Assembly: GCA_049511795.1 (NCBI GenBank)
Contig: JBEKXS010000001.1
Span: 321,497-385,496 of the forward strand
Length of the DNA stretch: 64,000 nucleotides
DNA from: Candidatus Pacearchaeota archaeon
Lineage (GTDB): Archaea > Nanobdellota > Nanobdellia > Pacearchaeales > GW2011-AR1
Reading direction: 5' to 3'
The position numbers were made by a program, and so were the translations under genes. Numbering within the stretch: the first letter of the stretch is position 1; the number at the start of each line of letters is the position of its first letter. The notes below the pieces were generated by a model. It did not search any database. It saw only the letters and a list, made by a program, of their open reading frames with translations, and was not told the DNA's origin. Below are positions 7 to 55,102 of this stretch, piece after piece.

Positions 7-3000
7 TTGCAGATTGCAGAGGAAATTTCAAAACAAAAATTCTGCAAGTTTGCGAGCCTGAAGGAAGCAATAGAAGCAGGAGCGAGAACAGGAGTTGCAT
101 ACATAACTCTTGGAGTTGTTTCAAGTCCTATAGAAGGACTAACTGAAATAAAAATATGTAAAACAAGAGACGGAAAAGAATATCTTAGCCCTTATTATTC
201 AGGACCGATAAGAAGTGCAGGAGGTTCTGGTGCTGCTTTTTCTTTGGTTATTGTAGATTATCTGCGTGAATTGTTTGGATATAGTAAATATGACCCAACA
301 GAAGATGAAATAAAAAGAAGTGCTGTTGAATTGCATGATTATCATGAAAGAATTACAAATCTTCAATATATGCCAACAGATGATGAATCAAAATTCCTTG
401 CAGCAAATATTCCTGTTCAAATTAATGGAGAACCATCTGAAACCTTGGAAGTTTCAAACTACAAAAATCTTGAAAGGGTAGAAACGAATTTGCTTAGAGG
501 GGGGTTTTGCCTTGTTCTTGGAGAAGGAATTGCACAAAAAGCAAAAAAAATTGCAAGATACATTTCTTCATTAAAGAAAAAAGGATTTAAATTAAGCGAT
601 TGGGAATTTTTGGATGAATATGTAAAGCTTCATGAAAGAAGAGACATGGGAAAAACAGATGCCTCGCCAACATATATTCAAGACCTAGTTGCTGGAAGGC
701 CTGTTTTCGGGCATCCTTCTGAATCAGGAGCTTTCAGATTTAGATATGGCAGAGGAAGATCTTCTGGATTTAGTGCAACGTCAATTCATCCTGCAACAAT
801 GGAGATAACAGACGAATTTATTGCAATAGGAACACAACTTAAGATTGAAAAGCCGACGAAAGGCTGCATTGTCACTAGTTGTGATTCAATAGACGGTCCA
901 ATTGTCAAGCTTTACAATGGTTCTGTCAAAAAAATAAATACAAAAGAGGAGGCAAAGAAATTATATGCTGATGTTGAGGAAATAATCTATCTTGGAGACA
1001 TTCTTTTTCCATTTAGCGATGTTGCCAACAGGAATGCAAATCTTTTGAAGCCAGGATATGTCGAGGAATTCTGGAAATTAGAATTGAGGGAAAAAAATCC
1101 AGAGCTTGAGAAAACAACTGATCCATTTAAAATTGATTTTGAAAAAGCCATTGAAATAAGCAACAAAGAAAAGATTTCCCTTAATCCAAAATACATTTTT
1201 TATTGGACAGAGATATCAAAAGAGCAGCTTTTGAATTTGATAGACTGGCTTAAGCAGGGAAAAACAAGCAAGAAAATAATTCTTCCTTTCACAAAATCAG
1301 ACCAGGAGAAATTTGGCCATGGAAAAAGAGCGCTTGAACTTCTTGGCATTGAGCATGATTTTGTAATAGAACATGTCATAATAAACCAAGAGAACAGCAA
1401 GGCAATGCTTGCAAATCTTGGAACTGATTTTGAAATTGTTAATGAAGAAAAAGAGTTAAGGTGGGAATTTGAAGAATATTCTGAGAAAATCAAGAAAACA
1501 ATTTCTGAAAATCCTGATTTTGGTGTTTTGGAACTGATTAATTCTGCTTCCAAACTAAACATAAGAAACAAAGCAGGAGATTTTATCGGTGCGAGAATGG
1601 GAAGGCCAGAGAAAGCAAAATTAAGAAAGCTTACAGGCAGTCCAAACGTACTTTTTCCTGTTGGAGAAGAAGGAGGAAGATTAAGAAGCTTCCAGTCAGC
1701 TGTTGAAAACGGAAGTGTATCAAGTGTTTTCCCAATATATAAATGTGAAAAATGCAACAAGGAAACTATTTACAGAACATGCGAAACCTGTGGAGAAAAA
1801 AGCAGAAAAATGTTTTATTGTCCAGAATGCGGAATCAACAAAACAGAAAAATGTGAGCAGCATAAAAATTCTTACTCATACTCAAACAATTCAATAGACA
1901 TGAACTATTATTTTGAAAGTGCAAGAGAGAAACTTGGATTGTCAAGCGGAGAAATACCCCCGTTAATTAAAGGAGTAAGAGGAACAATGTCTGAAGGGCA
2001 TATTGTTGAAAATTTAAGCAAGGGAATTTTAAGAGCGATGTTTGACTTGCAAGTAAACAAAGATGGAACAATAAGATTTGATGCAACAGAAATGCCCTTA
2101 GTTGCTTTCAAGCCAAAAGAAATAGGAGTTAGTGTTGAAAAATTACGGGAAATTGGTTATGACAAAGATATTAACGGGGAAGAACTTGTTAATGATAATC
2201 AGATTTTGGAATTAATGCCACATGATATTCTTCTTCCAAGCTCTCCTGAATCGCCAGATGGAAGAGCTGATGATATTTTCATGAGAATATGCCATTTTGT
2301 CGATGATATGCTTGTAAAGCTTTACAGGATGGAACCTATTTACAATGTCAGGAAAAGAGAAGATTTAGTTGGTAAAATTGGTGTTTGTATTGCGCCACAT
2401 AATTGTGCAGGTGTTGTTTGCAGGATTATTGGATTTTCAAATACTTTAGGAATGTTTGCAAGTCCATTCATGCACGCTGCAATCAGAAGAGACTGCGATG
2501 GTGATGAAGCAGCTATAATGCTTTTGGGAGATGTCTTGATAAATTTCTCAAGGGAATTTCTCCCACAGCACAGAGGAGGAAATCAGGATTCGCCACTTGT
2601 CCTTAATGCAAAGATTGACGCAGGAGAAGTTGATGACCAAATAATGGATTTCGAGCTTGTCAAGGAATACCCTATTGAATTATACAGGCTTGCAGAAGAA
2701 AGGAAACACTCTTCTGAAGTTTCAATTAAAGATGTAAGAAAAGCTTTGAAAAATGGAGACGATCCATTCCAAAACATTTTCTTTACGCATAACACAGAGA
2801 ATATCAATGATGGAGTTGCATGCTCAAGCTACAAACTTTTGGAAACAATGCAAGACAAGGTAAATCACCAAATGGAGCTTGTTGAAAAAATAAGGGCTGC
2901 AAACACAAGCGAGACAGCAAGGCTCATAATTGAAAGACATTTCTTGAGAGACATGAGAGGAAACCTGAGAAAATTTTCGATGCAGGAATTTAGGTGTGTT

Positions 3001-4879: not shown

Positions 4880-5788
4880 TTAATGAGTCTTGAATTCAAT
4901 CACATCCAAGTCTTTAAGCCCGTGATTCAAACCAACAATTTGCCCTGGAAATTTTGAACTTGGGCCCCAGATTCTTGTTTCCTTAACTTTTGTTGTTGTT
5001 TTGAAGATTTTTTCTGCAACATTCTTGACAGTTGTACTTGGATTGAAAATAAAAGGCTTTTCTGATTTATCTTTTCCTGGTTCCTTCGTGAAAATTCTTA
5101 TTTTTCCAAAACTTTTGAAAATCTTTTCCTTAAGCTGCTCCAAACCTTCACCTGTTTCTGTGTTTATTATCAAAGGCTCAATTTTTCTTGTTTTCATTGT
5201 TGCTTCAAGCTTTCTTAAGTCTGTATTTTTATCCATTACATTAAAAACAATAATTTTTTTCCCCACTGAACTTTGCAACTCCTCCTCTATTTCATTTATT
5301 TGCTCAAGACTATTTACAAGAAGAATAATTGAGTCAGCACTATTGACAAGGCCACGATCATAAAATTCTGATTTTACAGGCGGAACTTCAATAATTTGAA
5401 TATTGACACCCGAATATTTCATGATTCCAATAACTGGATTTTTTGTTGCAAAATGATAAGGATTTATTTCTGGAGATGCATTTGTAAGTTGGGAAAGGAG
5501 ACTTGATTTTCCTGAATTTGTCAAGCCGACAATAACTGCCTGCATATCTTCTTTTTTTATTCCCTGTTTACCCTTTCTTGCTTTTTTTGACTTTTCCTGC
5601 TGCTCTAGGAATTTTTTCAGCCTTGCCCTTAATTGCGCCCTTAAGTTTTCTCCTCCTTTATGTTTTGGAGCCACAGAAATCATTTTTTTGAGCTTCTCAA
5701 TTTTCTCTTCCTGCGTTTGGGCCATCAAATATTCTTTTTGGGCAGCCATGTATTCAGGATGTGCATTTATTGGCATTTTAAGGTACAA
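4880..5788 (-). CDS. DRG/Obg-family GTPase with C-terminal TGS domain (shortened)
   Basis: P-loop GLTNSGKSSLL; DRG-like N-terminal helical region; TGS-like C-terminus (IRIFTKEPG...DVIEF). Confidence 0.7.
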   Translation of the reverse strand: MYLKMPINAHPEYMAAQKEYLMAQTQEEKIEKLKKMISVAPKHKGGENLRAQLRARLKKFLEQQEKSKKARKGKQGIKKEDMQAVIVGLTNSGKSSLLSQLTNASPEINPYHFATKNPVIGIMKYSGVNIQIIEVPPVKSEFYDRGLVNSADSIILLVNSLEQINEIEEELQSSVGKKIIVFNVMDKNTDLRKLEATMKTRKIEPLIINTETGEGLEQLKEKIFKSFGKIRIFTKEPGKDKSEKPFIFNPSTTVKNVAEKIFKTTTKVKETRIWGPSSKFPGQIVGLNHGLKDLDVIEFKTH

Positions 5789-5817
5789 CTTTTAAACACA
5801 AAGAACTTAAAAATTTA

Positions 5818-6585
5818 ATGAAGCAAGAATTGTACCAAAAGATAGTTTCAAAGAAAGAATTTTCCCAGCTTCCTGAAGAAGATGTTGAAAAAGCATTTTC
5901 CCACTTTGAAAAAAGGCAGACAAGCGAGGAGGAGAAAATAAGGCTTACAAGGGAGCTTTTACACAAAGTTTTCGGTGCATTTCTAAGCAAAAAACTTCTT
6001 AGCCTGAAAAGTAAGGATGAAGAATGGATTTTGAGAAAACATCTTTCAACAAGGGAAAGACTTGAATTTTACAATGAACTTTACAAAAAACTGCTGAAGG
6101 GACTTGGTAAAAAAATAAGTGTTATTGATTTAGGAGCAGGTGTTAATGGTTTTTCTTACAAAATGTTCAAAAAAGTTGGTTTTGATGTGAACTACATAGG
6201 AGTTGAAGCTATAGGTCAGCTAGTAAACCAAATGAATAAATATTTTAAGAAAAATTTGCTGAATGCCAAAGCAATACACCTTAGCTTGTTTAATTTGGGC
6301 AAACTGAGGGAAATTATTAGCAAAACAAAAACATCAAGAGTTATTTTTTTGTTCAAAGTTGTTGATTCTTTAGAAATGCTTGATAGAGATTATTCAAAAA
6401 ATCTTATTTTAGAAACATCTAAACTTGCTGATAGAACTGTTGTAAGCTTTGCAACAGAAAGCATGATAAAAAGGAAAAGATTTGCTGCAAAAAGAACATG
6501 GCTTATTGATTTTCTTGAAAAGAATTTTGAAATCCTTGATGACTTTGAAATTGGTCATGAAAGATATATTGTTTTCAGAAGGTAA
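5818..6585 (+). CDS. FmrO/ArmA/RmtB-like 16S rRNA (m7G1405-type) methyltransferase homolog
   Basis: Block-wise similarity to Rmt family: HLSTRERLEFYNELY (cf. HASTKERL..LY), SAM motif I VIDLGAGVNG, VIFLFKVVDSLE, VVSFATES, C-terminal FEILDDFEIGHERYIVF. Confidence 0.6.
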   Translation: MKQELYQKIVSKKEFSQLPEEDVEKAFSHFEKRQTSEEEKIRLTRELLHKVFGAFLSKKLLSLKSKDEEWILRKHLSTRERLEFYNELYKKLLKGLGKKISVIDLGAGVNGFSYKMFKKVGFDVNYIGVEAIGQLVNQMNKYFKKNLLNAKAIHLSLFNLGKLREIISKTKTSRVIFLFKVVDSLEMLDRDYSKNLILETSKLADRTVVSFATESMIKRKRFAAKRTWLIDFLEKNFEILDDFEIGHERYIVFRR

Positions 6586-6611: not shown

Positions 6612-6821
6612 TTGAGCATAATGGCACAGAATCCGATGCAACCAATGCAACAACCTGTTCAACAGCAACCAGCACAAATGCCTCAGCCTAACCCACAACA
6701 GCCAATGCAGATGGGGCAGCCAATGCCTGAGCAAAAGAAAGGTGGATGGATGAAATGGTTATTTATTATTCTGGGAATAGCAATTGTTGTTGGGCTTCTC
6801 TTTGTTTTAAAGATAATTTGA
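6612..6821 (+). CDS. small Q/P/M-rich protein with C-terminal transmembrane anchor
   Basis: Low-complexity QPMQ repeats then WLFIILGIAIVVGLLFVL helix. Confidence 0.35.
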   Translation: MSIMAQNPMQPMQQPVQQQPAQMPQPNPQQPMQMGQPMPEQKKGGWMKWLFIILGIAIVVGLLFVLKII

Positions 6822-10119: not shown

Positions 10120-10812
10120 TTAATATTTACTGTTTATTATCCTAATAAAATTTTCTGATTTTTTCCCAAGCTCTTCTTTTAATTCTTCTTCGGGCAGATT
10201 CATTATTTCCTTTATTGTCTTGAATTTTTTAAGAAGTTTTCTTGCTGTTTTTGGGCCTATTCCTGGAAATCCTTCAAGGATATACTGCATTTGCTCCTTC
10301 TTGTTGCGGAATTTTTTTGTCACATTTAAAGGAGATTCCCGCGGTTTCTTCTTTGCAAGGACAGAAATGAATTTTGCTGTATCTTCATAGTTTTTAGTAA
10401 AAACTATCGGTGTTTTGTAATTAAGGAGAATTGAAAGAAGGAAACCACGAATAGAATTAGGATGCATTCCAATTCTTTCTTCTGGCCCGTCATCTGAATA
10501 AAGCTCCTGCTCATCAATACCTTCGATAATTAACAAGCGGGATTCATACTGCTTTAATTCTTCTAACTGATTTACTAAACGTCCAGATTTCATTGAATTT
10601 ATGAAATCAGAAACTGTTTTTCTTTCAATAGCAACTCCTGCAACAATATAATCTGCAACTTTCAGCTCTTTTACTTCTGAATCAACTCCTAACGATACAA
10701 GCTCTGAAATAATTAATGAACTTTTTTCTCTGTAATCTGCTTGTATTCTTGGTTTTTCAATTATTCTTTCTTTAGGTGTTTTTCTCAGGAAAATATTTAG
10801 TATTTCTTTCAT
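10120..10812 (-). CDS. XPF/Hef ERCC4-type nuclease domain with C-terminal HhH2
   Basis: ERCC4 motif GVAIERKTVSDF; C-terminal GFPGIGPKTARKLL helix-hairpin-helix; in frame with upstream helicase after one TAA. Confidence 0.8.
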   Translation of the reverse strand: MKEILNIFLRKTPKERIIEKPRIQADYREKSSLIISELVSLGVDSEVKELKVADYIVAGVAIERKTVSDFINSMKSGRLVNQLEELKQYESRLLIIEGIDEQELYSDDGPEERIGMHPNSIRGFLLSILLNYKTPIVFTKNYEDTAKFISVLAKKKPRESPLNVTKKFRNKKEQMQYILEGFPGIGPKTARKLLKKFKTIKEIMNLPEEELKEELGKKSENFIRIINSKY

Positions 10813-10815
10813 TTT

Positions 10816-12375
10816 TTATTTTAGAGTTTTCTGAAAATCTTGCTTTTGTTTTTCATTAAGACCTTCTTTGATTGAGTTTATTGCAGTGCTCATTTTTCTT
10901 TCTTTTGCCCTTGAACTATAAAAATAGGCTTCATCCCTTGTTTTTCTCGTTATTAACATTATAACTTTTCCTTTCATTAATCTTGCTGTACGTCCAGCTC
11001 GCTGAATAGCCCTTATTGCAGAAGGAACAGGCTCATAAAAAATAACAACATTGACTTCTGGAATGTCAAGCCCCTCCTCGCCTATGCTTGTTGCACATAT
11101 GATATTAATTTTCCTTTCTGAAAACTCTTCTATTATTTTCTTTTGCTCTTTTTGTGTTAATCCAGATATTCCTTCTTTACTCACTTTTTTTGCCTGACCA
11201 ACAAAAACTTTGGATTTTACTTCAGGAATAGTATTTAACATTTTACAAAGAATTCTTGCTGTTTCTCTGAACTGGGAGAAAACAATTATCTTAACTTTTT
11301 CATTTTCCCTGAATTCTTTTTCAACAATTTCGTGGAGAGCCTGAATTTTTGGATGTTCATGACCTCTGGCCAAAAGTTCCTCTGAATTAATCAAAGCAAA
11401 ATTAAATTCCGGTTTTGAAACAAGCCTCATTACTCCTTTATTTTGTTTTTTTGCAGCCTGGCTATAAAGTTCTTTCATATACTTATTGAATCCATACATT
11501 GTCTGAGTTTCAAGAAGTTCCATAGCATGCTGAAGCTTTACTGCCTGAGCGCATGCGCTTGATGCAAGAAGAGTATTAAAATTTTTATTCCCCTGAGAAA
11601 TCATAAACATTAATTTTTTCTGCAGCTTTATTAGCTCTGTTTTTGTAGGAGCACCAAAGAAGACTTTCCTGTTTCTCAGCTCATCTACATATGAATGGAA
11701 GAGTCTTAGGAGAGCTTCGCGTACTTCCTGGAATTTTTTGGGTAAGTCAAGAACAATTTTCTCAAACTTAAGTTCCTGAAGATAAGGAGCTACATCAGCA
11801 CTGTCCCTGTTTCTTAATTCAACTTCTTCTATTGAAAGATTTTTGCAAATGTCCTTTATTTTTGATGCTTCACTTCCTGGAGAAGCTGTCAGACCAAGAA
11901 TTCTTGGATGTTTTGCTGTATCCATGTATTTTCTTGCAAGATAGTTATATGAATAATTTTGAACACAGCGATGAGCCTCATCTTCTATTAAAAGACAAAC
12001 ATCATCTAAATTGTAAAGCCCATTGCTTACATCATTTGCAACACATTGGGGCGTTGAGAAAATTATATCTGCATAACCCCAGATTTTCTGCCTGTTTTCT
12101 GGAGAAACTTCTCCAGTGAATAGTTCAAGAGAACCAAAAAGTTCTGAAAGGTTGCTTTTGAAATATAAAAGATGTTGTTCTGCAAGAGGTTTTGTAGGAG
12201 CCAGAAAAACAACTTTTTCACCTGGAAATTTTTTTATCCTTTCAACAGTAAGCATTAGTGCAATAAGAGTTTTTCCCAAACCTGTAGGAAGAACAACAAG
12301 GCAGTTTTTCTGGACACATGTTTCAAATATTTTCTGCTGGTATTCTCTTGGTGTAACATTGGGCAAAAATTCCAT
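10816..12375 (-). CDS. Hef-type SF2 helicase module (DEAH box)
   Basis: Motif I PTGLGKT, motif II IEDEAHR, motif VI QRAGRTAR; Hef/FANCM-like domain order. Confidence 0.85.
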   Translation of the reverse strand: MEFLPNVTPREYQQKIFETCVQKNCLVVLPTGLGKTLIALMLTVERIKKFPGEKVVFLAPTKPLAEQHLLYFKSNLSELFGSLELFTGEVSPENRQKIWGYADIIFSTPQCVANDVSNGLYNLDDVCLLIEDEAHRCVQNYSYNYLARKYMDTAKHPRILGLTASPGSEASKIKDICKNLSIEEVELRNRDSADVAPYLQELKFEKIVLDLPKKFQEVREALLRLFHSYVDELRNRKVFFGAPTKTELIKLQKKLMFMISQGNKNFNTLLASSACAQAVKLQHAMELLETQTMYGFNKYMKELYSQAAKKQNKGVMRLVSKPEFNFALINSEELLARGHEHPKIQALHEIVEKEFRENEKVKIIVFSQFRETARILCKMLNTIPEVKSKVFVGQAKKVSKEGISGLTQKEQKKIIEEFSERKINIICATSIGEEGLDIPEVNVVIFYEPVPSAIRAIQRAGRTARLMKGKVIMLITRKTRDEAYFYSSRAKERKMSTAINSIKEGLNEKQKQDFQKTLK

Positions 12376-35165: not shown

Positions 35166-35714
35166 ATGAAGATTGGAGAAACAGAACTTAATATAAACGG
35201 CAAGACAATTAAAGCTTTAGTAACAAAATCTGAAAAGGGAGATAGAGAGCTTTTGAAAAGCCTTTATTCTGATTGGAAGAAACTTAATGATAGATTGAAG
35301 GCTATTTCAACAAGAGGGATAAATATTCCTGAAGCAATAACTGAAAATGCCTTTGCGTTGTTCTTTCCAGACTGTATAAGAGTTGTCAGTCTTAAAGGAA
35401 TGAAATGCTCTTTTGATTGCATAAACACTAAGACAGGCTCAAGAATACAGATTAAGGCTTCAAGCATAGCTTCTGACCTGACTTCTTTCGGGCCGCGCTC
35501 TGAATGGGACGAGCTGTTCTTTCTGGATTTCTCTGCAGGAAACGGCAGTTTCAAAGTATACAAAATAGAGCCAGACTGGGTTTACAAGCATAATGTAAAC
35601 AGAAATCAAACCTTTGAACAACAACAAGCACAGGGAAAAAGACCAAGGTTTTCTATAACAGAGAACATCATTAAGACAAGGAAACTAACACCAGTGAAAA
35701 TCTGCAAATTATAG
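35166..35714 (+). CDS. hypothetical protein, possible nuclease (weak PD-x(n)-QxK pattern)
   Basis: FFPDC...SRIQIKASS; island context next to the MTase/IS genes. Confidence 0.2.
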   Translation: MKIGETELNINGKTIKALVTKSEKGDRELLKSLYSDWKKLNDRLKAISTRGINIPEAITENAFALFFPDCIRVVSLKGMKCSFDCINTKTGSRIQIKASSIASDLTSFGPRSEWDELFFLDFSAGNGSFKVYKIEPDWVYKHNVNRNQTFEQQQAQGKRPRFSITENIIKTRKLTPVKICKL

Positions 35715-35784
35715 AAAATTATATATACTAATTCAACTTTGATTTTTCAGAGGCAAAGGGTTTATAAATATCAAAAGAGGAAAA

Positions 35785-36003
35785 ATGAATATGACAAGTA
35801 AGTATACAAAAATAGAATACATGAAAAGAAAAGAAATAAATTTGGATGCTGGAAATGCTTCTCCAAAAGCGAGAGCTATAATTGAAGCTACTGGAGCAGA
35901 GGATAATTTAATTCTTAGAATTAGTATAAACTCTCCAGTTTTCATAGAAGATGCAGCACCCTTAACAGCAGAAGGTATTACTTCTATCTGTCAAGAAAAT
36001 TAA
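35785..36003 (+). CDS. hypothetical protein
   Basis: ORF only. Confidence 0.25.
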   Translation: MNMTSKYTKIEYMKRKEINLDAGNASPKARAIIEATGAEDNLILRISINSPVFIEDAAPLTAEGITSICQEN

Positions 36004-36005
36004 AA

Positions 36006-36437
36006 ATGAGCTATGATTTCATAATCATAGACACCATAATTTGTGATTCTTATAACGAGGCTATGTATGATTTAAGTAATCCTTTTAGAGCTTCATTATT
36101 AAAATTACAAGAAATATCTGGGAATAAAGTTGCCGATAAAAAGAGACCTTTATTGTTCATAACTCTTGACACAAAAGGATTAGTAGAAAAAAAGTGTGTC
36201 AATGTTAATAATGAACTTCCGATAACTTATAGTTGTTTATTAGGGGCTTGTGGAAACATTGATATTTTTGGTAAGGATGAAGCAGATTCTATATTAAAAA
36301 GTTCAAGCTTCTTAAAATGGATGGAAAGGAAATTTTGTATTCTCACTGGAAATTCTTTATTAAAAACAATGTTATCTGAGAATGGATTTGAAGTTTACGA
36401 TTTATCCCAAGTAGACACTTTAATAGGAAAATTATGA
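36006..36437 (+). CDS. hypothetical protein
   Basis: ORF only. Confidence 0.3.
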   Translation: MSYDFIIIDTIICDSYNEAMYDLSNPFRASLLKLQEISGNKVADKKRPLLFITLDTKGLVEKKCVNVNNELPITYSCLLGACGNIDIFGKDEADSILKSSSFLKWMERKFCILTGNSLLKTMLSENGFEVYDLSQVDTLIGKL

Positions 36438-36581
36438 TTTCTTTTTCTTAGGCTCTTTATCCCAACGGGAACTTTTACATTTAGGGCATATAAGAGGCTT
36501 CTCTTTCTCTGAACGAGGCTGCCATTTATATCCACAGTTATTGCACTTGTATCCTTTGACTTTAATCTCAATTTCTGGCAT
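36432..36581 (-). CDS. 49-aa zinc-ribbon mini-protein (not in ORF track)
   Basis: Translates MPEIEIKVKGYKCNNCGYKWQPRSEKEKPLICPKCKSSRWDKEPKKKKS; two CxxC pairs. Confidence 0.35.
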   Translation of the reverse strand: MPEIEIKVKGYKCNNCGYKWQPRSEKEKPLICPKCKSSRWDKEPKKKKS

Positions 36582-36666
36582 ATCCTTTCTAAGAAATCAC
36601 ACCTTATAAATCTTACTAATCATAGTAATACTTTACAATAGAAATGTTTATAAAGGTGGTATTACT

Positions 36667-37581
36667 ATGTATAGTATGACTAATCATAGTAATAAGAAGA
36701 TGGAACAAAAAATAAAATGTCCGTATTGTAAGAATGAAAACATAGTTAGACGAGGACAGAGAAAGACGCAGAATAGAGGCATAATTCAAAGATACGGCTG
36801 TCAAGATTGCGGTAGGCGTTTTGTAGTTGATGATGGTTTTTGGAAAATGAAAAACGCTCCGCAGAAAGTAACCTTATGCCTTGACTTGTTTTATAGAGGA
36901 ATTTCAACAAGAAAAGTGCAGGAGCACCTTCAGGCTTTCTATCCGCATAATAGCTCTAATGTTTCTATCTATAAATGGATTGTAAAATATTCAAAGATGA
37001 TTTCAAGATTTACAGATAATCTTAAATTGAAAGTTGGAAAAGAGCTTCAGGTTGATGAAATGGAATTTAAGACTTCAGGAAGAAGGGCTTGGTTTATTGA
37101 CAGCATAGATACTGAAACAAGATTTATGGTTTCTTCTGAATTTTCAAAAAGAAGAGGCAGAAAAGAAATAATAAAAGTAATTGCAAGAGCAAAGAATAAT
37201 ACAGAAAATCAAATTAAGATATGCACAACTGACGGCTATACTGCATACGATAATGTTGTAAAAAAGATTTTTGGATATTGCCTTAAAACACATACTTGGA
37301 ATGTTGTTCATAACAAAGTAACACAGCTTAGAGGACAGGGCTTTAATCACAAAGTTGAAAGAATGCACAGCAATATAAGAGCAAGAACAAAAACTTTCAG
37401 AAGTTTTCACGGCTCTGTTAATTCTGCAAATGCAGTTATGAAAGGGCTTTCAGTTTATTACAACTTCATAAGAGAACATCAAGCCATAGGAAAATGTCCT
37501 TATGAATTAGCTGTTCCAGAATTGAAACTTGGAATTAACAAATGGCACGATTTAATTAAACTTTCAAAGCAAAATAATTAA
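36667..37581 (+). mobile_element. IS6-family DDE transposase with N-terminal zinc ribbon
   Basis: IS6 blocks: HTH SIYKWIVKY, DEMEFKTSGRRAWFIDSID (cf. DETYVKVNGRWAYLYRAVD), TTDGYTAY, and C-terminal HN..ER..S..R...R..F block. Confidence 0.8.
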
Positions 37582-37584
37582 AAG

Positions 37585-38550
37585 ATGGTAAGATATAGGG
37601 CTGGTATGGAACGAGGATTAAGGACATTAGATTTATTTGCAGGTGTTGGTGGAATAAGACTGGGTTTTGAAAATGCAGGATTTAATACTATTTTTGCAAA
37701 TGATTTTGATAAGACCTGCAAAGATACTTATGACTTGAATTTTTCAGAGCCTAAGCTTAATACAGAAGATATATGGAAATTAAATATAAGCAAAATTCCA
37801 GACTTTGATATATTGCTCGGTGGCTTTCCTTGTCAGGCTTTTTCTATTGCAGGATACAGAAAAGGGTTTAATGAAGAAAGAGGGAATTTATTTTTTAGAA
37901 TTGCAGAGATTTTAGAAGAAAGAAGACCAGAAGCTTTTTTATTAGAGAATGTAAAAAATCTTAAAGGACACGATAAAGGAAACACTTTCAAAGTTATTGA
38001 AAAGACTTTAAGAGAATTAGGCTATCACATTAAATCAAAGGTGCTTAATAGTATGGAATATGGGAATGTTCCACAGAACAGAGAAAGAATATTTATTGTT
38101 GGATTTTTAGATAAAAAGAAAGAAGAAGCTTTTGAGTTTCCAGAGCCCATCAAATTAACAAAATCCTTTAAAGAGTTTACAGCAAAGGAAGCAGAAGATA
38201 AATATTATTACAACGATAAGCCTCTTTATGAAAGAATAAAGAATGATATTAACTCTGAAGAAACAGTTTATCAGTGGCGTAGAAAATATGTAAGAGCAAA
38301 TAAGAAAGGCGTTGTTCCAACATTAACAGCAAATATGGGATTAGGCGGTCATAATGTTCCTATAATCAAAAATCATAAAGGAATAAGAAAGCTAACACCA
38401 AAAGAAACCTTTATGCTCCAAGGTTTTCCAAAAGAGTTTAAGCTCCCTGAAAATCTTGCAGACAGCAAATTATATCATCAAGCAGGGAATAGCGTAACCG
38501 TTCCAGTAATTCAAAGGATAGCGGAAAATATGATTAAAGTATTATCTTAA
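37585..38550 (+). CDS. DNA (cytosine-5)-methyltransferase
   Basis: Motif I LFAGVGG, motif IV GGFPCQAFS, motif VI ENV, C-terminal QAGNSV; start more likely at the internal Met (37606). Confidence 0.9.
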   Translation: MVRYRAGMERGLRTLDLFAGVGGIRLGFENAGFNTIFANDFDKTCKDTYDLNFSEPKLNTEDIWKLNISKIPDFDILLGGFPCQAFSIAGYRKGFNEERGNLFFRIAEILEERRPEAFLLENVKNLKGHDKGNTFKVIEKTLRELGYHIKSKVLNSMEYGNVPQNRERIFIVGFLDKKKEEAFEFPEPIKLTKSFKEFTAKEAEDKYYYNDKPLYERIKNDINSEETVYQWRRKYVRANKKGVVPTLTANMGLGGHNVPIIKNHKGIRKLTPKETFMLQGFPKEFKLPENLADSKLYHQAGNSVTVPVIQRIAENMIKVLS

Positions 38551-38689
38551 TTTTTTTGGGAGATTAAGTCCCGAAGAATTAACAATACATGATTAATCAG
38601 ACTTTGCACGACAAAGTAATTCTGCACGAGAATAAAGGTTTCTGCACGGAAATGCAAATGGTTAAAAGTTAAGGAATCTTTCTTGATTT

Positions 38690-39405
38690 ATGAATTTTAA
38701 AAGCATCGAAAACCTTAAGGTTAATCTTAAAGAAATATCTGAAAAAGGGTTTATTGAGAATCATAGAGAAGGAGATAATGGAGGAGTTGGAAGGACTTTA
38801 GAAGATGAAATGGGTATTATAGAGAATAATCTAAAAACAGGAGATTTTAAGGTTGGAGATGAATGGGTGGAATTAAAAACACAAAGAAGAAAGGCCGCAA
38901 ATAGGATTACTCTATCAACAAAAGAACCTCAATGGATTATTAATAAGTTTGAAGCAGTTAAGAAAACTGGTTATAAAGATCATAAAGGAGAATTGGATTA
39001 AAAATTACTTTGAGTGCTTTATCTTTTAATGCTAAAGGATATAAATTAGAAATTAAGGGAAATAAAATATCTATAATAAATAAAGTGTTAGGAGAAGTTT
39101 GTTTCTTTGATAAGAAGAAGTTAATTGAAATAATTAAAGAGAAATTAGGAGAAAATATGTTGTTTGTAATTGCGGATGCGAAAAAGAAGAATGATAAAGA
39201 ATATTTCCACTTTGTTGAAGCAGAATATTTTTCCCAATTTGATGAAGATGCATTTGAAGAAATGATAAAAGATGGAAAGATAATTTGGGAATTTAGATTA
39301 CATCTAAAGTCAGATACTGCATTTAGAGATCATGGTTCTGGTTTTAGAGTTAATAGGAAATATTTGCATGAGATGTATAAAAAGAAAATTATTCTTCTTT
39401 CTTAG
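38690..39405 (+). pseudogene. candidate restriction endonuclease gene split by a frameshift (ORFs 38690-39001 and 39010-39405)
   Basis: Second frame is open from 38986 and overlaps the first ORF's end; possible D..ExK element (VGDEWVELK); sits between two DNA MTase genes. Confidence 0.4.
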
Positions 39406-40267
39406 CTGGTCTCCAGAAATCCAATATATATTCGAAGGTTGTTCCCATTGTAATATAATTATTGGGCCAACCAAAGATACCAGCTTTATTCACAAGATTC
39501 CTTCTATCCCATATTATTATATTTCTTAATTCATAACCAACTTTTTCCATTTCTTCTATTACATAAAGATGCATTGGAATTCTTTTATTTTCCCACCATA
39601 AATCAGTTATATTAATTACACAATGAGCTTTATGTTTTAATAAAGGAAGAATTTTTTCATATATTTTTGCTAACTCTTGCGAATACTGCTTAGGTTCCAT
39701 TGTTCCTAAATCTCTTGGATTATTAGAATATTGTTGAACTTTTTTAAAATGAACATTTTGTCTATCTTTTCCCCTCATGCTTTTATTTAATCTTGGTCTA
39801 TTCAGCATATTTGCATATGGAGGAGAAGTAACACATAAAGAAACAGATTCTTTTTCTAAATATTCTGGAATATTTAATGCATCATCATTTATTACAATCT
39901 GTTTAGAATTTCCAACAGAAGGTGTTTCTTCCAGTCTTTTTAATGCAAAATCAGTATATTGTTTGCTTAAATCTACTCCAACAGCATTTCTGTCTAAATC
40001 CCTTGCGGCAATGAGGGTGGTCCCTATTCCTACAAAAGGATCAAGAACCAATTCTCCTTTATGTGTAAATAGTTCAATACATCTTTGTGGGAGTTCAATA
40101 GGGAAAACAGCAGGATGTATGCTTTTGTCTCTTATGTCTCTTTTCCTGTAATAAAGTTCCCATAGAGCAACTTGAGCTTTCATCCATTCTTTTGCAGTTA
40201 AACAATTAATATGATTATCTTGACAATCACAAGTTTTTTTGTATTTTATATCTAATTTCTTATTCAT
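39389..40267 (-). CDS. N4-cytosine/N6-adenine DNA methyltransferase (amino-MTase)
   Basis: AdoMet motif LDPFVGIGTT preceded by FPIELPQRCIELFT; catalytic motif IV SPPY. Confidence 0.85.
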   Translation of the reverse strand: MNKKLDIKYKKTCDCQDNHINCLTAKEWMKAQVALWELYYRKRDIRDKSIHPAVFPIELPQRCIELFTHKGELVLDPFVGIGTTLIAARDLDRNAVGVDLSKQYTDFALKRLEETPSVGNSKQIVINDDALNIPEYLEKESVSLCVTSPPYANMLNRPRLNKSMRGKDRQNVHFKKVQQYSNNPRDLGTMEPKQYSQELAKIYEKILPLLKHKAHCVINITDLWWENKRIPMHLYVIEEMEKVGYELRNIIIWDRRNLVNKAGIFGWPNNYITMGTTFEYILDFWRPAKKEE

Positions 40268-40524
40268 TTTTTATTCAATTCATTTATCTCTTCTAATATT
40301 GCTTGTTTTGGGTTTTTCAATTTATAGATTGTTTTACGGGCATCTTTTTCAGACATTCTCATTTCAAGCCAGTCTGCTTTTCTTAATTCAGAAAGAAGGA
40401 CTGCTATAGCATTATCATTATTAAGAATTTTTAAAGCTTGATCTTTAGTGAACTCTTTATCTTTTAATTTACTCCAGAGTTTAGCATAACGTTTCATTAT
40501 CCATTCAGGAAGATGTTGGGCCAT
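40264..40524 (-). CDS. small protein co-transcribed with the amino-MTase (4-nt overlap)
   Basis: ORF only; helical; possible regulator. Confidence 0.3.
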   Translation of the reverse strand: MAQHLPEWIMKRYAKLWSKLKDKEFTKDQALKILNNDNAIAVLLSELRKADWLEMRMSEKDARKTIYKLKNPKQAILEEINELNKK

Positions 40525-40771
40525 TTTATAAGTTATTAACTTATATAATAATCTATCATTTATAAAATTTTGTTATTACTGTTTTTCTCAGAAAGAAATT
40601 TAAACATCAATTGTGTTTGTATAATAAGGGATGAATTGAAAAAGAGGGTGGAGTGGCTTTAGCTTGATTTTTCTGTCGCTTCAAATTTGATAGTGTAAAC
40701 TGAATTTTGACAAGATTCTTTAGTATAGAAGTATTTATAAAGATAATCGTATAGTAAGATACTATAGTAAA

Positions 40772-41344
40772 ATGGTCGATTATAAATGTGAAGATGTAAC
40801 TCATCCTGAGACTGATCTCAAAATAGAAGTCTATGCTCCACAATGGTACAAAAGAGGGCACCATGATGATGTTTACTCTCAAAAAGTTATAGACTCAAAA
40901 TTAACAGATGAATCTGACTATTTCAAACCTTACATTGAACATTTGATACAAGAGCTTTTAGCTGAACATAAAATAAAAAAAGCAGATCTTATAATTATAA
41001 TCCCAAGAAGTGGAGGAACTTTTTCTCCAACACTGGAAAAGCTTGGCAATTTTCTCGCATCAAAATTTGGAGGAACCTTTGACAAAATTATAAGGAAAAA
41101 ACCATCTGACAGAAAAAATATAAGCAGCAGCACATTTTCTGAAAGGTTGAAAAAATCAGAAGAAGAGTTCGCTCTAATCAGAAGAGTTGGGCCAGATGAG
41201 AAGACTATATGGATTTTAGATGATCAAAAAACGACTGGGAGCACATTATTAGTCTGTACACAACTTTTAAAAAAATCAAGAGATTGTGAAGTTTATTGTT
41301 TTGCTCTAAGCATAAATAGAAATGTAGAACTGTTTGGAGAATAA
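40772..41344 (+). CDS. ComF-like phosphoribosyltransferase-domain protein (no zinc finger)
   Basis: PRTase motif IWILDDQKTTGSTL followed by a ComFC-like C-terminus. Confidence 0.6.
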   Translation: MVDYKCEDVTHPETDLKIEVYAPQWYKRGHHDDVYSQKVIDSKLTDESDYFKPYIEHLIQELLAEHKIKKADLIIIIPRSGGTFSPTLEKLGNFLASKFGGTFDKIIRKKPSDRKNISSSTFSERLKKSEEEFALIRRVGPDEKTIWILDDQKTTGSTLLVCTQLLKKSRDCEVYCFALSINRNVELFGE

Positions 41345-41358
41345 AGAGGGGAGGGTTT

Positions 41359-42279
41359 ATGGAGAAACAAGAATTAATTGACTGGCTTAAATTTTGTAAA
41401 GTAAGAAAAATAGGATCAAGTAAAGTATTAAAGTTGTTTGGTATTTTTGGAACTTTTGATAAACTGTTTAATGCAAAAGATGAAGAACTGTATAGGACCA
41501 GAGTTTTCGATGAAGAGATGATTAAACAATTTTCTGAAGTTAAATCTGAAGATGGATTAATTGAAAATTTTACTTTAGACATCTGCGAAAGAGAAAAAAT
41601 AAAAGTAATCCCTATCTATTCTGAAGATTATCCTTCTAACCTAAAGAACTTGCCTGATGCTCCATTAACATTATATATGCAAGGAAATACAAATCTTCTC
41701 AAAGTAAGAAAAATAGCAATAGTTGGAAGCAGAAAATCAGATGAAAATGCTTTAAGGTGGGCCTTAAATGCCTCTAAGGGGTTAGTTAAAGAAGGAATTG
41801 TAATTGTAAGTGGTGGAGCAAAAGGAATTGATTATCAGGCTCATCAAGGAGCATTAAAACTTGGAGGAAAAACAATATGTGTTTTTGGTTCTGGTCTTTT
41901 AAAATTATATCCCCCAGAAAATAGAGAAATGTTTGCTGAAATAAAAAATAATGGTGGTCTTTTCATAAGTGAACATTCTCCAGCAGATAAGGGGAGCAGA
42001 TTATCTTTATTAAGAAGAAATAGAATCATCTCTGGAATTTCTGATAGTATTATTATAGTTACAAGTGCAAAAGAGGGAGGATCTCGAACTCAAATAGAAA
42101 TAGCTAATAAACAAAGAATCCCAATTTTTGTTCCAAAAATATCTTTAAACTTTACACCAAATGAGGGAATTAGCGATGCCATAAAACAACATAGAATTAA
42201 AGATATAGAAAATTATGAAGAAGTTTTTATGGAAACCTATTCTAATAAGAAAAAGTTCTCAATACAGAAAACTTTATAA
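41359..42279 (+). CDS. dprA: DNA processing protein DprA/Smf
   Basis: N-terminal SAM/HhH-like segment; Rossmann core VGSRKSDENALRWA...VSGGAKGID...GSRTQIEIA. Confidence 0.8.
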   Translation: MEKQELIDWLKFCKVRKIGSSKVLKLFGIFGTFDKLFNAKDEELYRTRVFDEEMIKQFSEVKSEDGLIENFTLDICEREKIKVIPIYSEDYPSNLKNLPDAPLTLYMQGNTNLLKVRKIAIVGSRKSDENALRWALNASKGLVKEGIVIVSGGAKGIDYQAHQGALKLGGKTICVFGSGLLKLYPPENREMFAEIKNNGGLFISEHSPADKGSRLSLLRRNRIISGISDSIIIVTSAKEGGSRTQIEIANKQRIPIFVPKISLNFTPNEGISDAIKQHRIKDIENYEEVFMETYSNKKKFSIQKTL

Positions 42280-42332
42280 ATAGCTATATACTTATATAAT
42301 AAGTAAATAACTTATGTTATTTTATATAGAAT

Positions 42333-50554: not shown

Positions 50555-50651
50555 AGCCTGTGGAGGGAGTTGAACCCTCGACCCCCGGTTATTTTGGATT
50601 TTTATTGAAAAATCATACAAAACCGATGCTCTGCCACTGAGCTACACAGGC
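50555..50651 (-). tRNA. tRNA-Thr (anticodon TGT) with an intron of about 25 nt at 37/38
   Basis: Manual fold: acceptor GCCTGTG/CACAGGC, D-stem GCTC/GAGC, anticodon stem TCGGT/ACCGG interrupted after loop TTTGTA by TGATTTTTCAATAAAAATCCAAAAT, T-loop TTCAACT. Confidence 0.65.
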
Positions 50652-53145: not shown

Positions 53146-53283
53146 TGAAAAAATATTTACTTCTTGTAGAAGATGAAAAACTCTGGGAAAAATTTAAGCA
53201 GAATATAAAAAAAGACCTTAATACAGAAATAATAGAACTTATCAGAAAAAAAATTGAAGAGGTGAAGAAGCATGAGAAATAAA
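53146..53283 (+). CDS. 45-aa possible ribbon-helix-helix regulator overlapping the start of the 609-aa gene (not in ORF track)
   Basis: MKKYLLLVEDEKLWEKFKQNIKKDLNTEIIELIRKKIEEVKKHEK: beta-strand then two helices pattern. Confidence 0.25.
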
Positions 53284-55101: not shown

Positions 55102-55102
55102 A

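Follow-up and report, generated by a model that had tools for sequence, protein, structure and literature searches.

The window, a 64,000-nucleotide stretch of DNA from a Candidatus Pacearchaeota archaeon, encodes a 255-residue protein that is a genuine but distant member of the FmrO/Arm/Rmt family, and its gene is native, belongs to the core genome and is inherited vertically in Pacearchaeota and across the wider Nanoarchaeota/Woesearchaeota radiation. We propose, with a probability of about 0.6, that this native core gene encodes an active, SAM-dependent housekeeping methyltransferase of the 16S rRNA decoding centre with a non-resistance role. The m7G1405 methyltransferases ArmA and RmtA-H are among the most worrying determinants of aminoglycoside resistance, and we know of no evolutionary source and no native, non-resistance role for enzymes of this specificity. 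The gene is part of a large archaeal branch of the family that resembles core genes of the translation apparatus in being vertically inherited, strongly constrained and, in sister lineages, located in small-subunit biogenesis operons.

Family membership, fold and residue conservation

The gene lies exactly where the sequence-only reading had placed it (Table 1). Its ATG start agrees with the N-termini of 20 homologs, and the product is 100% identical to the NCBI entry 'hypothetical protein ABSG05_02225 [Candidatus Pacearchaeota archaeon]'. All five sequence blocks quoted in that reading are found in the protein, and the strings it had set beside them (DLALIFKLLPLLE, RMAVSFPTRS and FEIEDKKTIGTELIYLI) are real RmtB sequence, as seen in the translation of a plasmid-borne rmtB.

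Table 1 Features of the methyltransferase gene and its divergent flank. Nucleotide positions are those of the window; residues (aa) are those of the 255-residue protein.
Feature	Residues (aa)	Position (nt)	Strand	Description
DRG-type GTPase (MMR_HSR1 + TGS)		4880..5788	-	Pfam; divergent conserved neighbour; likely true start ATG at 5776
Divergent intergenic region		5777..5817	.	41 bp, AT-rich, between the DRG GTPase and methyltransferase genes
Methyltransferase gene, complete	1-255	5818..6585	+	ATG start; FmrO/Arm/Rmt-family SAM-dependent methyltransferase, Pacearchaeal subfamily
N-terminal helical domain	1-70	5818..6027	+	Counterpart of the Rmt N1/N2 30S-docking domain
HLSTRERLEFYNELY block	75-89	6040..6084	+	Quoted in the sequence-only reading
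HLSTRER, family-specific HxSTxER	75-81	6040..6060	+	Counterpart of RmtC S107 and R111 and of Sgm R108
VIDLGAGVNG block, motif I	102-111	6121..6150	+	Predicted SAM-binding glycine loop; aligns with RmtC D134-N140; quoted in the sequence-only reading
E130, motif II acidic residue	130	6205..6207	+	Counterpart of RmtC D160 and Sgm D156
S156, motif III position	156	6283..6285	+	Ser where RmtC D188 and Sgm D182 are acidic
Subfamily-specific insertion, extra helix LGKLREIISK	about 160-169	6295..6324	+	Between strands beta3 and beta4
VIFLFKVVDSLE block with K180	175-186	6340..6375	+	K180 is the counterpart of RmtC K204; quoted in the sequence-only reading
VVSFATES block	208-215		+	Quoted in the sequence-only reading
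Strand beta6 and loop, VVSFATESMIKRKRFAAKRTW	208-228	6439..6501	+	Counterpart of RmtC Loop237-246
FEILDDFEIGHERYIVF block	237-253	6526..6576	+	Quoted in the sequence-only reading

The proposed family assignment was borne out by profile searches. Pfam FmrO (PF07091) matched the protein at 30.2 bits (E 3.9e-7), above the gathering score of 27, and is precomputed for most of its 120 closest homologs. The generic NCBIfam Rmt model NF000466 aligned its positions 1-251 of 254 with residues 3-251 (E 2.2e-26). This match scored 92.7 bits and missed the equivalog cut-off of 250, and the individual RmtA-H models gave 25-39 bits versus cut-offs of 500-550; the protein is not a resistance-type Rmt equivalog. 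In phmmer searches of the PDB, RmtC was matched at 3.6e-9 and Sgm at 3e-3, and alignment of the family profile with the Rmt profile by hhalign gave a probability of 100% (E 2.5e-46) over 244 columns spanning both domains.

The AlphaFold model of the protein (pLDDT 88, pTM 0.86) has the two-domain architecture of the family, with an N-terminal helical (N1/N2) domain followed by a C-terminal class I Rossmann methyltransferase domain. When this model was compared with the PDB by Foldseek, the 16 best matches were all m7G1405 methyltransferases (RmtC, Sgm, RmtB, RmtF and ArmA; E 6e-15 to 1e-8, TM up to 0.77, 259-279 alignment columns), and the matches that followed were generic Rossmann folds (E about 7e-7, query-normalised TM up to 0.53). 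The homology thus extends over the N-terminal 30S-docking domain and the Rossmann domain, and the similarity to Rmt/ArmA goes far beyond chance and generic SAM motifs. A generic Rossmann methyltransferase was rejected because the Methyltransf_31/23/4 matches are below cut-off (E 3e-4 to 1.5e-2) and cover the SAM-binding core only, whereas the Rmt homology includes the N-terminal domain. The Kam/NpmA 16S rRNA (m1A1408) family was likewise rejected, with NpmA/KamB absent from the phmmer PDB matches at E<=1 and from the top 50 Foldseek PDB matches. A neighbour-joining tree was built without bootstrap support and with actinomycete sequences left out, and for these reasons no conclusion on rooting or ancestry is drawn from it.

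Residue conservation was assessed over 215 homologs, 153 of them belonging to the Pacearchaeal subfamily and the Woesearchaeal sequences making up tier 2. The HxSTxER motif, motif I, the lysine (K180) and the aromatic residue (F55) are all present and 85-100% conserved. In the N-terminal domain, which carries K12-K13-E14-F15, R33, R42, R45, H49 and F55, helices are modelled at residues 3-10, 20-28, 37-55 and 58-61, and hhalign aligns the domain with RmtC residues 8-64. R45, at the position of RmtC R50 (essential for docking, like K20, Y21 and H54), and F55 are each 98% conserved in the subfamily; the F55 counterpart, RmtC Y60, is stacked against both SAM and the flipped G. The position of RmtC K20 is occupied by E14 in an ungapped alignment (91% E in the subfamily), with K12-K13 preceding it, and that of Y21 by F15 (92% F); a Y21F change cripples RmtC. 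RmtC H54 corresponds to H49, a position that is R in 49% and H in 46% of the subfamily.

The predicted SAM site is largely, not entirely, that of the known enzymes. H75, S77, T78, E80 and R81 of the HxSTxER motif, whose residues bind the carboxyl/amino end of SAM in Sgm and RmtC (PMC2896518, PMC10288597), are invariant in A1, with S77 and R81 100% conserved across the 215 homologs, and D104, G106, G108 and N110 of motif I are 99-100% conserved. The acidic SAM-binding pair of motifs II and III is not fully kept and consists of a conservative Glu (E130) and a non-acidic Ser (S156). The ribose hydroxyls of SAM are bound in RmtC and Sgm by the acidic residue of motif II (PMC2896518, PMC10288597); this position is E in 97% of the subfamily and D 64%/E 33% in the Woesearchaeal tier. 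At the motif III position, where D182A abolishes SAM binding by Sgm (PMC2896518), 81% of the subfamily has S and 15% has D, and tier 2 has D in 82%. The subfamily-specific insertion falls opposite an 8-residue gap in RmtC (hhalign) and forms a helix (residues 160-169) in the AlphaFold model.

RmtC K204, a universally conserved residue, contacts N7 of the target guanine (PMC10288597). Its counterpart K180 is present in the protein, in 120/120 close homologs and in 85% of the whole subfamily; a syntenic, orthologous sub-clade lacks this 'universal' Lys (K->Q/N). Close by lie E186, 99% conserved, and D183, which is 100% conserved and stands where the clinical enzymes have P/T (RmtC T207). RmtC Loop237-246 pries open h44, with M245 as the hydrophobic wedge. 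Within the archaeal counterpart of this loop, R219 (RmtC R241) is R in 73% and K in 20% of the subfamily (R/K 93%), and F222 (F 90%) lies at or next to M245, which faces a one-residue gap adjoining F222 in the hhalign alignment. W228, the family Trp, is W in 98%, the RmtC K236 position (E214) is variable (E37/R30/K14), and that of R211 is M in archaeal members. Since residues essential for RmtC action on E. coli 30S are systematically changed (K20, Y21, H54, K236, R211 and the Asp of motif III), the mode of docking may differ, and possibly the target as well.

Genomic context and distribution in DPANN archaea

The flanks had been described as a DRG GTPase and housekeeping genes, and Pfam identified a DRG-type GTPase, TyrRS, an M16 peptidase and PolD DP2. 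The window also carries RadA, RPA, aIF2alpha, GINS51, TFB, S3Ae and a probably intron-containing tRNA; an rRNA gene was not found in it (Rfam). The intergenic region between the DRG GTPase and methyltransferase genes, with a TATA-like TTTTAAA about 27 nt upstream of the methyltransferase ATG, probably contains back-to-back promoters for leaderless mRNAs. The composition of the gene is indeed native-looking: GC content (0.312 versus 0.338 for the window) and codon usage (correlation 0.82, with a range of 0.66-0.93 for its neighbours) match those of the surrounding genes.

Database searches yielded 1103 homologs of the protein, with 1012 clusters at 50% identity (E<=1e-3), and at least 199 species genomes, virtually all of them with a DPANN label, carry relatives. 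The protein belongs to a tight Pacearchaeal subfamily, distinct from a Woesearchaeal/Nanoarchaeal tier. The order TyrRS/DRG/methyltransferase/M16 peptidase is kept in about 71/80 loci and the divergent DRG/methyltransferase arrangement in 71/80, as part of a conserved core-genome order (TyrRS/DRG/methyltransferase/M16/arginase/LigT/ERCC4/Hef) that persists at protein identities of only 55-70%. Across at least 80 DPANN genomes the gene is conserved at 55-79% identity, with its synteny kept. The whole region of 12 kb around the gene is syntenic, so adjacency to DRG by itself is weak evidence of function. One related locus (L010) is labelled 'Bacillota bacterium', and since it has the archaeal order TyrRS/DRG/methyltransferase/M16/ERCC4/Hef, this label is probably a binning error. 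The methyltransferase gene is under strong purifying selection (dN/dS 0.05-0.08).

Relatives in Woesearchaeota and Nanoarchaeota often directly follow eIF1A-RIO1-KH(Dim2) or a Pelota-like gene. In 17/80 tier-2 loci, the co-directional gene immediately upstream encodes KH/PNO1(Dim2), in most cases with eIF1A before it; RIO1 may be present or absent in these contexts, and NMD3 and eIF2beta also occur. At about 19 loci, the gene directly upstream of the relative is of the Pelota/eRF1 family. The universal 1392-1406 16S motif was absent from the 171 sequences searched (170 fetched loci and the window; 1.45 Mb).

The best identity to any plasmid-borne gene was 23.6%, the only plasmid matches being rmtC, and the search for viral relatives found none that were close. 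Across 160 loci, there was no association with mobile elements, aminoglycoside biosynthesis genes or other resistance genes; sampled rmtC, rmtB and armA genes adjoin IS1, blaTEM-1 and IS26, respectively. Synteny, purifying selection, native composition and the lack of close plasmid or viral relatives all agree with the initial suggestion of an endogenous gene rather than a recent acquisition.

The family had been described as known from aminoglycoside producers and Gram-negative pathogens, which is incomplete, as NEQ545 of Nanoarchaeum equitans was reported in 2010 as the 'first archaeal ortholog' of the Arm family, a strongly diverged protein that keeps the C-terminal motifs but departs from the family in its N-terminal domain (PMC2896518). 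NEQ545 and its Nst1 ortholog were listed in 2013 as one of 15 Nanoarchaeota signature genes (PMC3655853). The archaeal branch is therefore not new. Literature searches for DPANN with aminoglycoside and methyltransferase, or for FmrO with archaea, returned no description of an archaeal FmrO/Arm homolog.

Proposed function and target site

The gene is an old, vertically inherited core gene of DPANN archaea and therefore most likely serves routine ribosome modification, not drug resistance. We infer a 16S rRNA substrate, N7-guanine chemistry, the exact nucleotide and the timing of the reaction. In the proposed mechanism, the N-terminal helical domain would dock near h44/h45 on the interface side of a 30S subunit that is mature or nearly so. 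Helix 44 would then be deformed at its top by the beta6/7 loop (R219 and F222) and residues around it, causing a guanine to flip into the active site. Stacked on F55 and positioned by K180, this base would receive a methyl group at N7. Residues H75/S77/R81, E130 and the DLGAGxNG loop would hold SAM. The modification would be constitutive and contribute to small-subunit maturation or decoding-centre tuning. By homology only, the default target would be the G1405 equivalent, with a displaced site, for example G1401, as a serious alternative.

Such a shift is the subject of the first alternative, in which the Nanoarchaeota/Pacearchaeota clade methylates another decoding-centre nucleotide, at or adjacent to G1401/C1402, instead of G1405; we hold this reading tentatively, as possible. 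In 16S rRNA from N. equitans, a carrier of NEQ545, the T1 fragment 1406-1410 was observed by mass spectrometry, so RNase T1 cut 3' of G1405, and because m7G1405 blocks this nuclease, stoichiometric m7G1405 is excluded in that organism. Fragments with nt 1402 were missing from the expected mass range, RiboMeth-seq showed a 'sequence ambiguity at G1401', and the authors of that study placed base modifications 'at, or adjacent to, C1402', with the enzyme not assigned. If G1401 were m7G, fragments 1393-1401 and 1402-1405 would appear as one and the modified base would be alkali-labile, which could account for both oddities. NEQ545 is the orphan Arm-family enzyme of N. equitans (PMC2896518), and a change of binding register would be compatible with the fact that both archaeal tiers systematically have E, F/L, R and D in place of K20, Y21, H54 and T207. 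However, NEQ545 is strongly diverged and its link to the G1401/C1402 modification is circumstantial, the flipped guanine is gripped by the same active-site residues as in the G1405 enzymes, partial m7G1405 in N. equitans is compatible with the data, and modification of C1402 could be another cause of the missing fragment.

In a more far-reaching version, which we consider rather unlikely, the FmrO/Arm enzymes of Nanoarchaeota, Woesearchaeota and Pacearchaeota would form the missing housekeeping branch of the aminoglycoside-resistance methyltransferase family, acting phylum-wide in late 30S maturation, co-transcribed in many genomes with Pelota or with eIF1A, RIO1 and Dim2, and installing a G1401/C1402-adjacent modification and not m7G1405, and might take the checkpoint role of KsgA/Dim1 where the latter is reported absent. 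To our knowledge, N. equitans is without KsgA/Dim1 and its ribosome maturation pathway is unusual. If this version were true, an orphan modification would gain its orphan enzyme, NEQ545 with its relatives, and we would have an example of the type of native function from which resistance enzymes could have been recruited.

It is improbable, in our view, that the protein is a true m7G1405 enzyme giving intrinsic protection against 4,6-deoxystreptamine aminoglycosides from neighbouring microbes, that is, a resistance gene fixed in the lineage. Aminoglycoside resistance is the only demonstrated phenotype of the family (PMC2896518, PMC10288597), and JGI pipelines automatically name some relatives '16S rRNA (guanine(1405)-N(7))-methyltransferase'. 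Against this stand the placement of the gene in translation and ribosome-biogenesis contexts, the change of several residues needed for high-level resistance by RmtC, the N. equitans data that argue against full G1405 methylation, and the lack of any association with aminoglycoside biosynthesis, resistance genes or mobile elements in the 160 loci. Conservation at the phylum level across groundwater, sediment, marine and hot-spring habitats is also hard to explain by antibiotic pressure alone.

A diverged methyltransferase acting on a non-ribosomal substrate (tRNA, protein or small molecule), or a catalytically dead assembly factor, is very improbable. The loss of the motif III Asp (S156), the K->Q/N change of the catalytic Lys in a syntenic sub-clade and a Pfam FmrO score barely above threshold would fit such a protein. 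Yet the RNA-docking N-terminal domain is kept, with its highly conserved R45 and F55, all other SAM-contacting residues are invariant, the 16 best fold matches are exclusively 16S rRNA enzymes, and the gene contexts are ribosome-linked. Finally, although the family was first known from bacteria and one related locus bears a Bacillota label, a recently acquired bacterial resistance gene or contaminating bacterial contig is effectively refuted by the archaeal gene content of the window (PolD DP2, RadA, RPA, aIF2alpha, GINS51, TFB and S3Ae), the synteny in about 71/80 genomes, the native composition and the low identity to plasmid-borne genes.

If constitutive methylation of the decoding centre by this native core enzyme is correct, it would be the first housekeeping role for the FmrO/Arm/Rmt family, it would add a lineage-specific rRNA modification to DPANN ribosomes, and it would provide a candidate enzyme for the N. 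equitans 16S modification at or next to G1401/C1402. Automated pipelines already give relatives the name of G1405 resistance enzymes, and 'resistome' counts from environmental metagenomes may be inflated by such labels.

Comparison with known systems

The protein shares its two-domain architecture and fold with RmtB, RmtC, RmtF and ArmA of Gram-negative pathogens (TM 0.72-0.77 with RmtB, RmtF and Sgm) and is similar in length to RmtB (255 versus 251 residues), although it is only 22-24% identical to RmtB/RmtC. Common to both groups are HxSTxER, the DxGxGxN motif I, FK...LE with the catalytic Lys, the SF(P/A)T strand, the basic residue and hydrophobic wedge of the beta6/7 loop, the family Trp and a C-terminal E. 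The archaeal proteins differ in having E, F and H/R in place of RmtC K20, Y21 and H54, an invariant Asp in place of T/P207, Ser for the motif III Asp, Glu for the motif II Asp, and the 8-residue helix insertion. Whereas acquired Rmt/ArmA genes are plasmid- or transposon-borne, the window gene is chromosomal, syntenic and archaeal.

With the enzymes of actinomycete producers (Sgm, KgmB, GrmA and FmrO), the protein shares family, fold and a chromosomal, intrinsic gene, and in the fold comparison Sgm (3lcu) ranks second among the PDB matches (E 5e-14, TM 0.73). Unlike the producer genes, the window gene is not linked to an aminoglycoside biosynthetic cluster; Sgm D182 is not conserved, and the sequence similarity to Sgm is weaker than that to RmtC (phmmer 3e-3 versus 3.6e-9).

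KsgA/Dim1 (RsmA) is the universal late-stage 30S checkpoint dimethylase of h45. The analogy with it is functional only: KsgA/Dim1 is a class I SAM methyltransferase that docks on the h44/h45/h24/h27 interface of the late pre-30S, and in tier-2 genomes the FmrO homolog is co-oriented with the late small-subunit factors RIO1 and KH/Dim2, but KsgA/Dim1 belongs to another family and performs another chemistry (m6,2A1518/1519). An approximate E. coli RsmA query gave no KsgA/Dim1 match in the fetched DPANN DNA, which says little, as this DNA comprises local regions only.

An archaeal precedent is NEQ545/Nst1, compared here by published description. Like the window protein, it is an archaeal, chromosomally encoded and diverged Arm-family member from DPANN; the window protein differs in belonging to the Pacearchaeal subfamily, apart from the Woesearchaeal/Nanoarchaeal tier, and its gene is best seen as the Pacearchaeal counterpart of NEQ545.

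Family membership and archaeal relatives

The methyltransferase gene begins with ATG and encodes 255 amino acids at the position that the sequence-only reading had given, and its product matches 'hypothetical protein ABSG05_02225' (Candidatus Pacearchaeota archaeon) at 100% identity. That reading quoted five sequence blocks, and each of them is present (aa 75–89, 102–111, 175–186, 208–215 and 237–253), and the strings they were compared with are true RmtB sequence, as checked against translated plasmid rmtB. Pfam FmrO (PF07091) matched the protein with 30.2 bits (E 3.9e-7), just exceeding the gathering score of 27, and generic methyltransferase families of Pfam all stayed under cut-off. The generic Rmt model of NCBIfam matched end to end (aa 3–251 versus model positions 1–251 of 254, E 2.2e-26) with 92.7 bits, far under the equivalog cut-off of 250. 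Searched against the PDB with phmmer, the protein retrieved RmtC (3.6e-9), RmtB, RmtF, Sgm and ArmA; compared in pairs, it shares 22% identity with RmtB and 23.6% with RmtC. An hhalign comparison of 21 family members with a profile of RmtC, RmtB, ArmA, RmtF and relatives gave 100% probability and E 2.5e-46 across 244 columns over both domains. The best 16 PDB matches of an AlphaFold model (pLDDT 88.3, pTM 0.86) are all m7G1405 methyltransferases (TM ≤0.77, 259–272 columns); after the sixteenth, E worsens at least about fifty-fold and generic Rossmann folds follow, aligned over the C-terminal domain only. The proposed FmrO/Rmt assignment thus holds, since the FmrO match is significant and the homology spans both domains instead of generic SAM motifs only. 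The protein is almost certainly a member of the FmrO/Arm family, a true relative by evolution and not an Rmt equivalog.

Archaeal relatives were sorted into two tiers. Tier 1, the Pacearchaeal subfamily into which the window protein falls, scores at least 140 bits against a Pacearchaeal profile and only 21–86 bits against an HMM of four clinical enzymes; tier 2 scores 95–130 bits against the Pacearchaeal profile and mostly near-equally against both HMMs. Named tier-2 proteins are all from Woesearchaeota, Nanoarchaeota, Nanoarchaeia or plain 'archaeon'. The clinical enzymes group apart from both tiers in a crude neighbour-joining tree, from which no rooting is concluded because it lacks support values and actinomycete sequences. 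Some tier-2 proteins (P0207, P0227, P0273, P0288, P0315 and others) are auto-named '16S rRNA (guanine(1405)-N(7))-methyltransferase' by JGI/IMG, a label that, on archaeal homologs of putative function, could inflate environmental resistome counts.

Gene order, inheritance and surroundings

The window is archaeal DNA, encoding PolD DP2, TyrRS, RadA, RPA, aIF2alpha, GINS51, SRP54/FtsY, TFB and S3Ae; NCBI taxonomy places Pacearchaeota under Archaea; Nanobdellati, that is, DPANN. Among 5.8 billion proteins searched, 1103 are homologs at E ≤1e-3. Of these, the best 120 are 59–79% identical and about 255 aa long, and their named organisms are Pacearchaeota, Nanoarchaeota and Nanoarchaeia, the sole exception being a 'Bacillota bacterium' MAG label on the same protein as that of locus L010. 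When 1.84 billion cluster representatives were searched exhaustively with a profile, 1012 clusters reached E ≤1e-3 (65 at E ≤1e-30). At least 199 species have a relative in a scan that took a single genome for each GTDB species, a lower bound because the scan relies on peptide patterns.

Across 80 loci the order TyrRS(+), DRG GTPase(−), methyltransferase(+), M16 peptidase(+), arginase-family(+), LigT(+), ERCC4(−), Hef helicase(−) recurs, with DRG upstream in 71 and M16 downstream in 71 (exceptions are mostly contig ends), and the proteins encoded are only 55–70% identical. Two loci labelled otherwise, L010 (DATKUW010000085.1, 'Bacillota bacterium') and L080 (JBDRJG010000010.1, 'Candidatus Iainarchaeum'), have this Pacearchaeal gene order at 59–63% identity, sharing TyrRS, DRG and methyltransferase, to which L010 adds M16, ERCC4 and Hef; the labels are therefore probably binning or labelling errors. 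Against three orthologs, dN/dS of the gene is 0.05–0.08, and its GC, GC3 and codon usage lie inside the range of neighbouring genes. No relative was found in the viral contigs searched, and rmtC itself was the only match in the plasmid search. The native-looking composition and housekeeping neighbourhood noted earlier are borne out, and synteny, constraint, composition and the lack of close plasmid or viral relatives argue for an endogenous gene rather than a recent acquisition. This is an old, strongly constrained core gene of its lineage, and native, vertical inheritance is very likely.

Several further features of the window were recorded. The peptide encoded just 3' of the methyltransferase gene is Gln/Pro-rich (MAQNPMQPMQQPVQQQP...) with a hydrophobic, transmembrane-like C-terminal tail, and has tblastn matches in related loci L001 and L015 only. 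A Hef-like repair enzyme is divided between two adjacent genes 3 bp apart; the nuclease occurs in 48 and the helicase in 39 of 80 related loci, and since many loci hold both it looks like a stable split gene. An island of low GC (~0.30) inside the otherwise core region looks like a mobile restriction-modification island. The tRNA matched by Rfam went unreported by ARAGORN, probably because of an intron within an archaeal tRNA. Two large successive ORFs, without a Pfam match at E ≤1e-3, may encode giant surface proteins as in DPANN episymbionts.

Features of the window (positions in nt)
Feature	Position	Strand	Remark
FmrO/Arm-family methyltransferase	5818–6585	+
Small ORF	6612–6821	+	Likely ATG at 6621
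Hef-like pair	10120–12375	−
ERCC4 nuclease with HhH domain	10120–10812	−
Hef-like helicase	10816–12375	−
Low-GC island	~35166–43331		Bsp6I-like restriction endonuclease, IS240-type and IS4-type transposases, C5 cytosine DNA methylase, N4/N6 DNA methylase, DprA
tRNA match	50555–50651	−	97 nt
Two large ORFs	53272–61861	+	609 aa and 2252 aa

Adjacency of the window gene to DRG weighs little by itself, because the whole 12-kb region is syntenic. In tier 2, in a Nanoarchaeota MAG (L086, 3358–5789), eIF2beta, DUF424, NMD3, eIF1A, RIO1 kinase and KH/PNO1(Dim2) precede the methyltransferase gene, which overlaps the cluster end by 4 bp and is followed by S15 and S3Ae; eIF2beta, DUF424, NMD3, eIF1A, (RIO1) and KH constitute a late small-subunit biogenesis gene set. 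A KH/PNO1-like gene lies directly upstream on the same strand in 17 of 80 tier-2 metagenome loci, most often after eIF1A, RIO1 being present or absent (besides L086: L089–L092, L104, L108, L109, L112, L120, L121, L123, L126, L129, L137 and L146–L148). The linkage, sometimes an overlap in Woesearchaeal/Nanoarchaeal loci, persists with methyltransferases merely 36–55% identical. In about 19 further tier-2 loci a Pelota/eRF1-family gene is directly upstream, same strand, and in about 21 the gene directly downstream encodes a TrmB-family transcriptional regulator (L093, L094, L096–L099, L102, L107, L113, L118, L119, L144 and others); these counts include some near-duplicate contigs from sister samples. 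A few loci adjoin Rpp21 (Pfam-confirmed) or genes resembling ABCE1 or NAC by eye. As contextual evidence, the recurrent partners, including the Pacearchaeal DRG GTPase, are all translation or ribosome-biogenesis factors.

Catalytic and docking residues

Residues were mapped in an alignment of 153 tier-1 and 62 tier-2 sequences with four clinical enzymes, cross-checked by phmmer and hhalign. Roles in RmtC are from a 30S–RmtC cryo-EM and MIC study (PMC10288597) and those in Sgm from PMC2896518.

Correspondence of RmtC residues to the window protein
RmtC	Role	Window	Conservation
R50	30S docking	R45	98% in subfamily
Y60	Stacks on flipped G and SAM	F55	98%
H105, S107, T108, E110, R111	SAM binding	H75, S77, T78, E80, R81	100% for S and R
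D134 to N140	Motif I	D104 to N110	99–100%
D160	Motif II, ribose	E130	97%, conservative change
K204	Universal Lys, contacts target G N7	K180	All 120 close homologs
R241	Distorts h44	R219	R or K 93%
M245	Hydrophobic wedge	F222, at or adjacent to M245	90% F
K252	Trp in family	W228	98%
K20		E14	Changed; 91% E; one-residue shift possible because a KK pair directly precedes E14
Y21		F15	Changed; 92% F; in tier 2 usually Leu
H54		H49	R in 49% of tier 1, 79% of tier 2
T207		D183	Changed; Asp 100% in both tiers
R211		M187	Changed
K236		E214	Changed; variable E/R/K
D188 (Sgm D182)	Motif III	S156	Changed; 81% Ser

We read the guanine-flipping and N7-methylating machinery as apparently intact and the 30S-reading surface as apparently remodelled, as expected for an archaeal ribosome. 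The K20E substitution kills RmtC (PMC10288597), and the window protein carries an 8-residue helix insertion (aa 160–169); the remodelled surface possibly reflects a different binding register.

A Pacearchaeal-type sub-clade lacks the catalytic Lys in 22 of 33 full-length representatives of 50%-identity clusters (P0132, P0133, P0141–P0176; loci L169:5001–5771 and L170:5001–5768). The position of K180 is occupied by Q, N, R or L (as in 'FQVVDALE'), and the Glu of HxSTxER is replaced in the same proteins, by Lys in about half. P0146 and P0160 look like orthologs because their locus is syntenic, running from DRG to the methyltransferase, then an M16 (L169) or M3 peptidase (L170), then ERCC4. A relocated Lys or altered chemistry is possible.

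Target site and relation to known enzymes

The gene is native and constrained, and its product is a probably active FmrO/Arm-family methyltransferase whose most likely role is a housekeeping modification of 16S rRNA helix 44 at its decoding-centre end; we put action on small-subunit rRNA at about 0.75. Family match and native status support the sequence-only reading of an endogenous rRNA-modification enzyme, the modification itself being predicted.

The G1405 equivalent is the leading candidate base, tentatively and at somewhat under even odds. Since m7G1405 blocks RNase T1, its stoichiometric presence gives a composite 1402–1415 fragment, and the fragment starting at 1406 is gone (Savic et al.). 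Nanoarchaeum equitans has a family member; from isolated nt 1390–1446 of its 16S rRNA, T1 digestion yielded UC(Am)(Am)Gp, nt 1406–1410 (Seistrup et al. 2016); T1 therefore cut 3' of G1405, which speaks against stoichiometric N7-methylation there, lowers confidence in G1405 for the archaeal clade and motivates a shifted target. Fragments with nt 1402 were undetected in that study, RiboMeth-seq showed 'sequence ambiguity at G1401', and base modifications were concluded 'at, or adjacent to, C1402', without an assigned enzyme. A neighbouring base such as G1401 is an unlikely target overall. We infer that m7G at G1401 would block T1, merging 1393–1401 with 1402–1405, and, being alkali-labile, would together with that block explain both oddities. 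KsgA/Dim1 is missing from N. equitans and also from some other nano-sized archaea. Resistance, the role of the bacterial RmtA–H, ArmA and Sgm, is very improbable as the main selective value of this syntenic core gene.

Searchable papers held no description of the family's breadth across Pacearchaeota and Woesearchaeota, its conserved synteny, its place within operons for small-subunit biogenesis and with Pelota, or the systematic replacement of docking residues in archaeal members. NEQ545 of N. equitans, presented as the Arm family's 'first archaeal ortholog', with perfectly conserved C-terminal motifs and a diverged N-terminal domain (Husain et al. 2010, PMC2896518), had no other mention in that literature. 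The archaeal branch is known in outline from Husain et al. and Podar et al., and the finding is no surprise given the 2010 note and a 2013 listing of NEQ545 as a Nanoarchaeota signature gene (PMC3655853). The window gene nonetheless offers a concrete, testable way to approach both an orphan rRNA modification and the native function of an enzyme family of clinical importance. Compared with the family and archaeal presence already known, it represents a separate core-genome subfamily whose docking residues are remodelled and whose function is putative.
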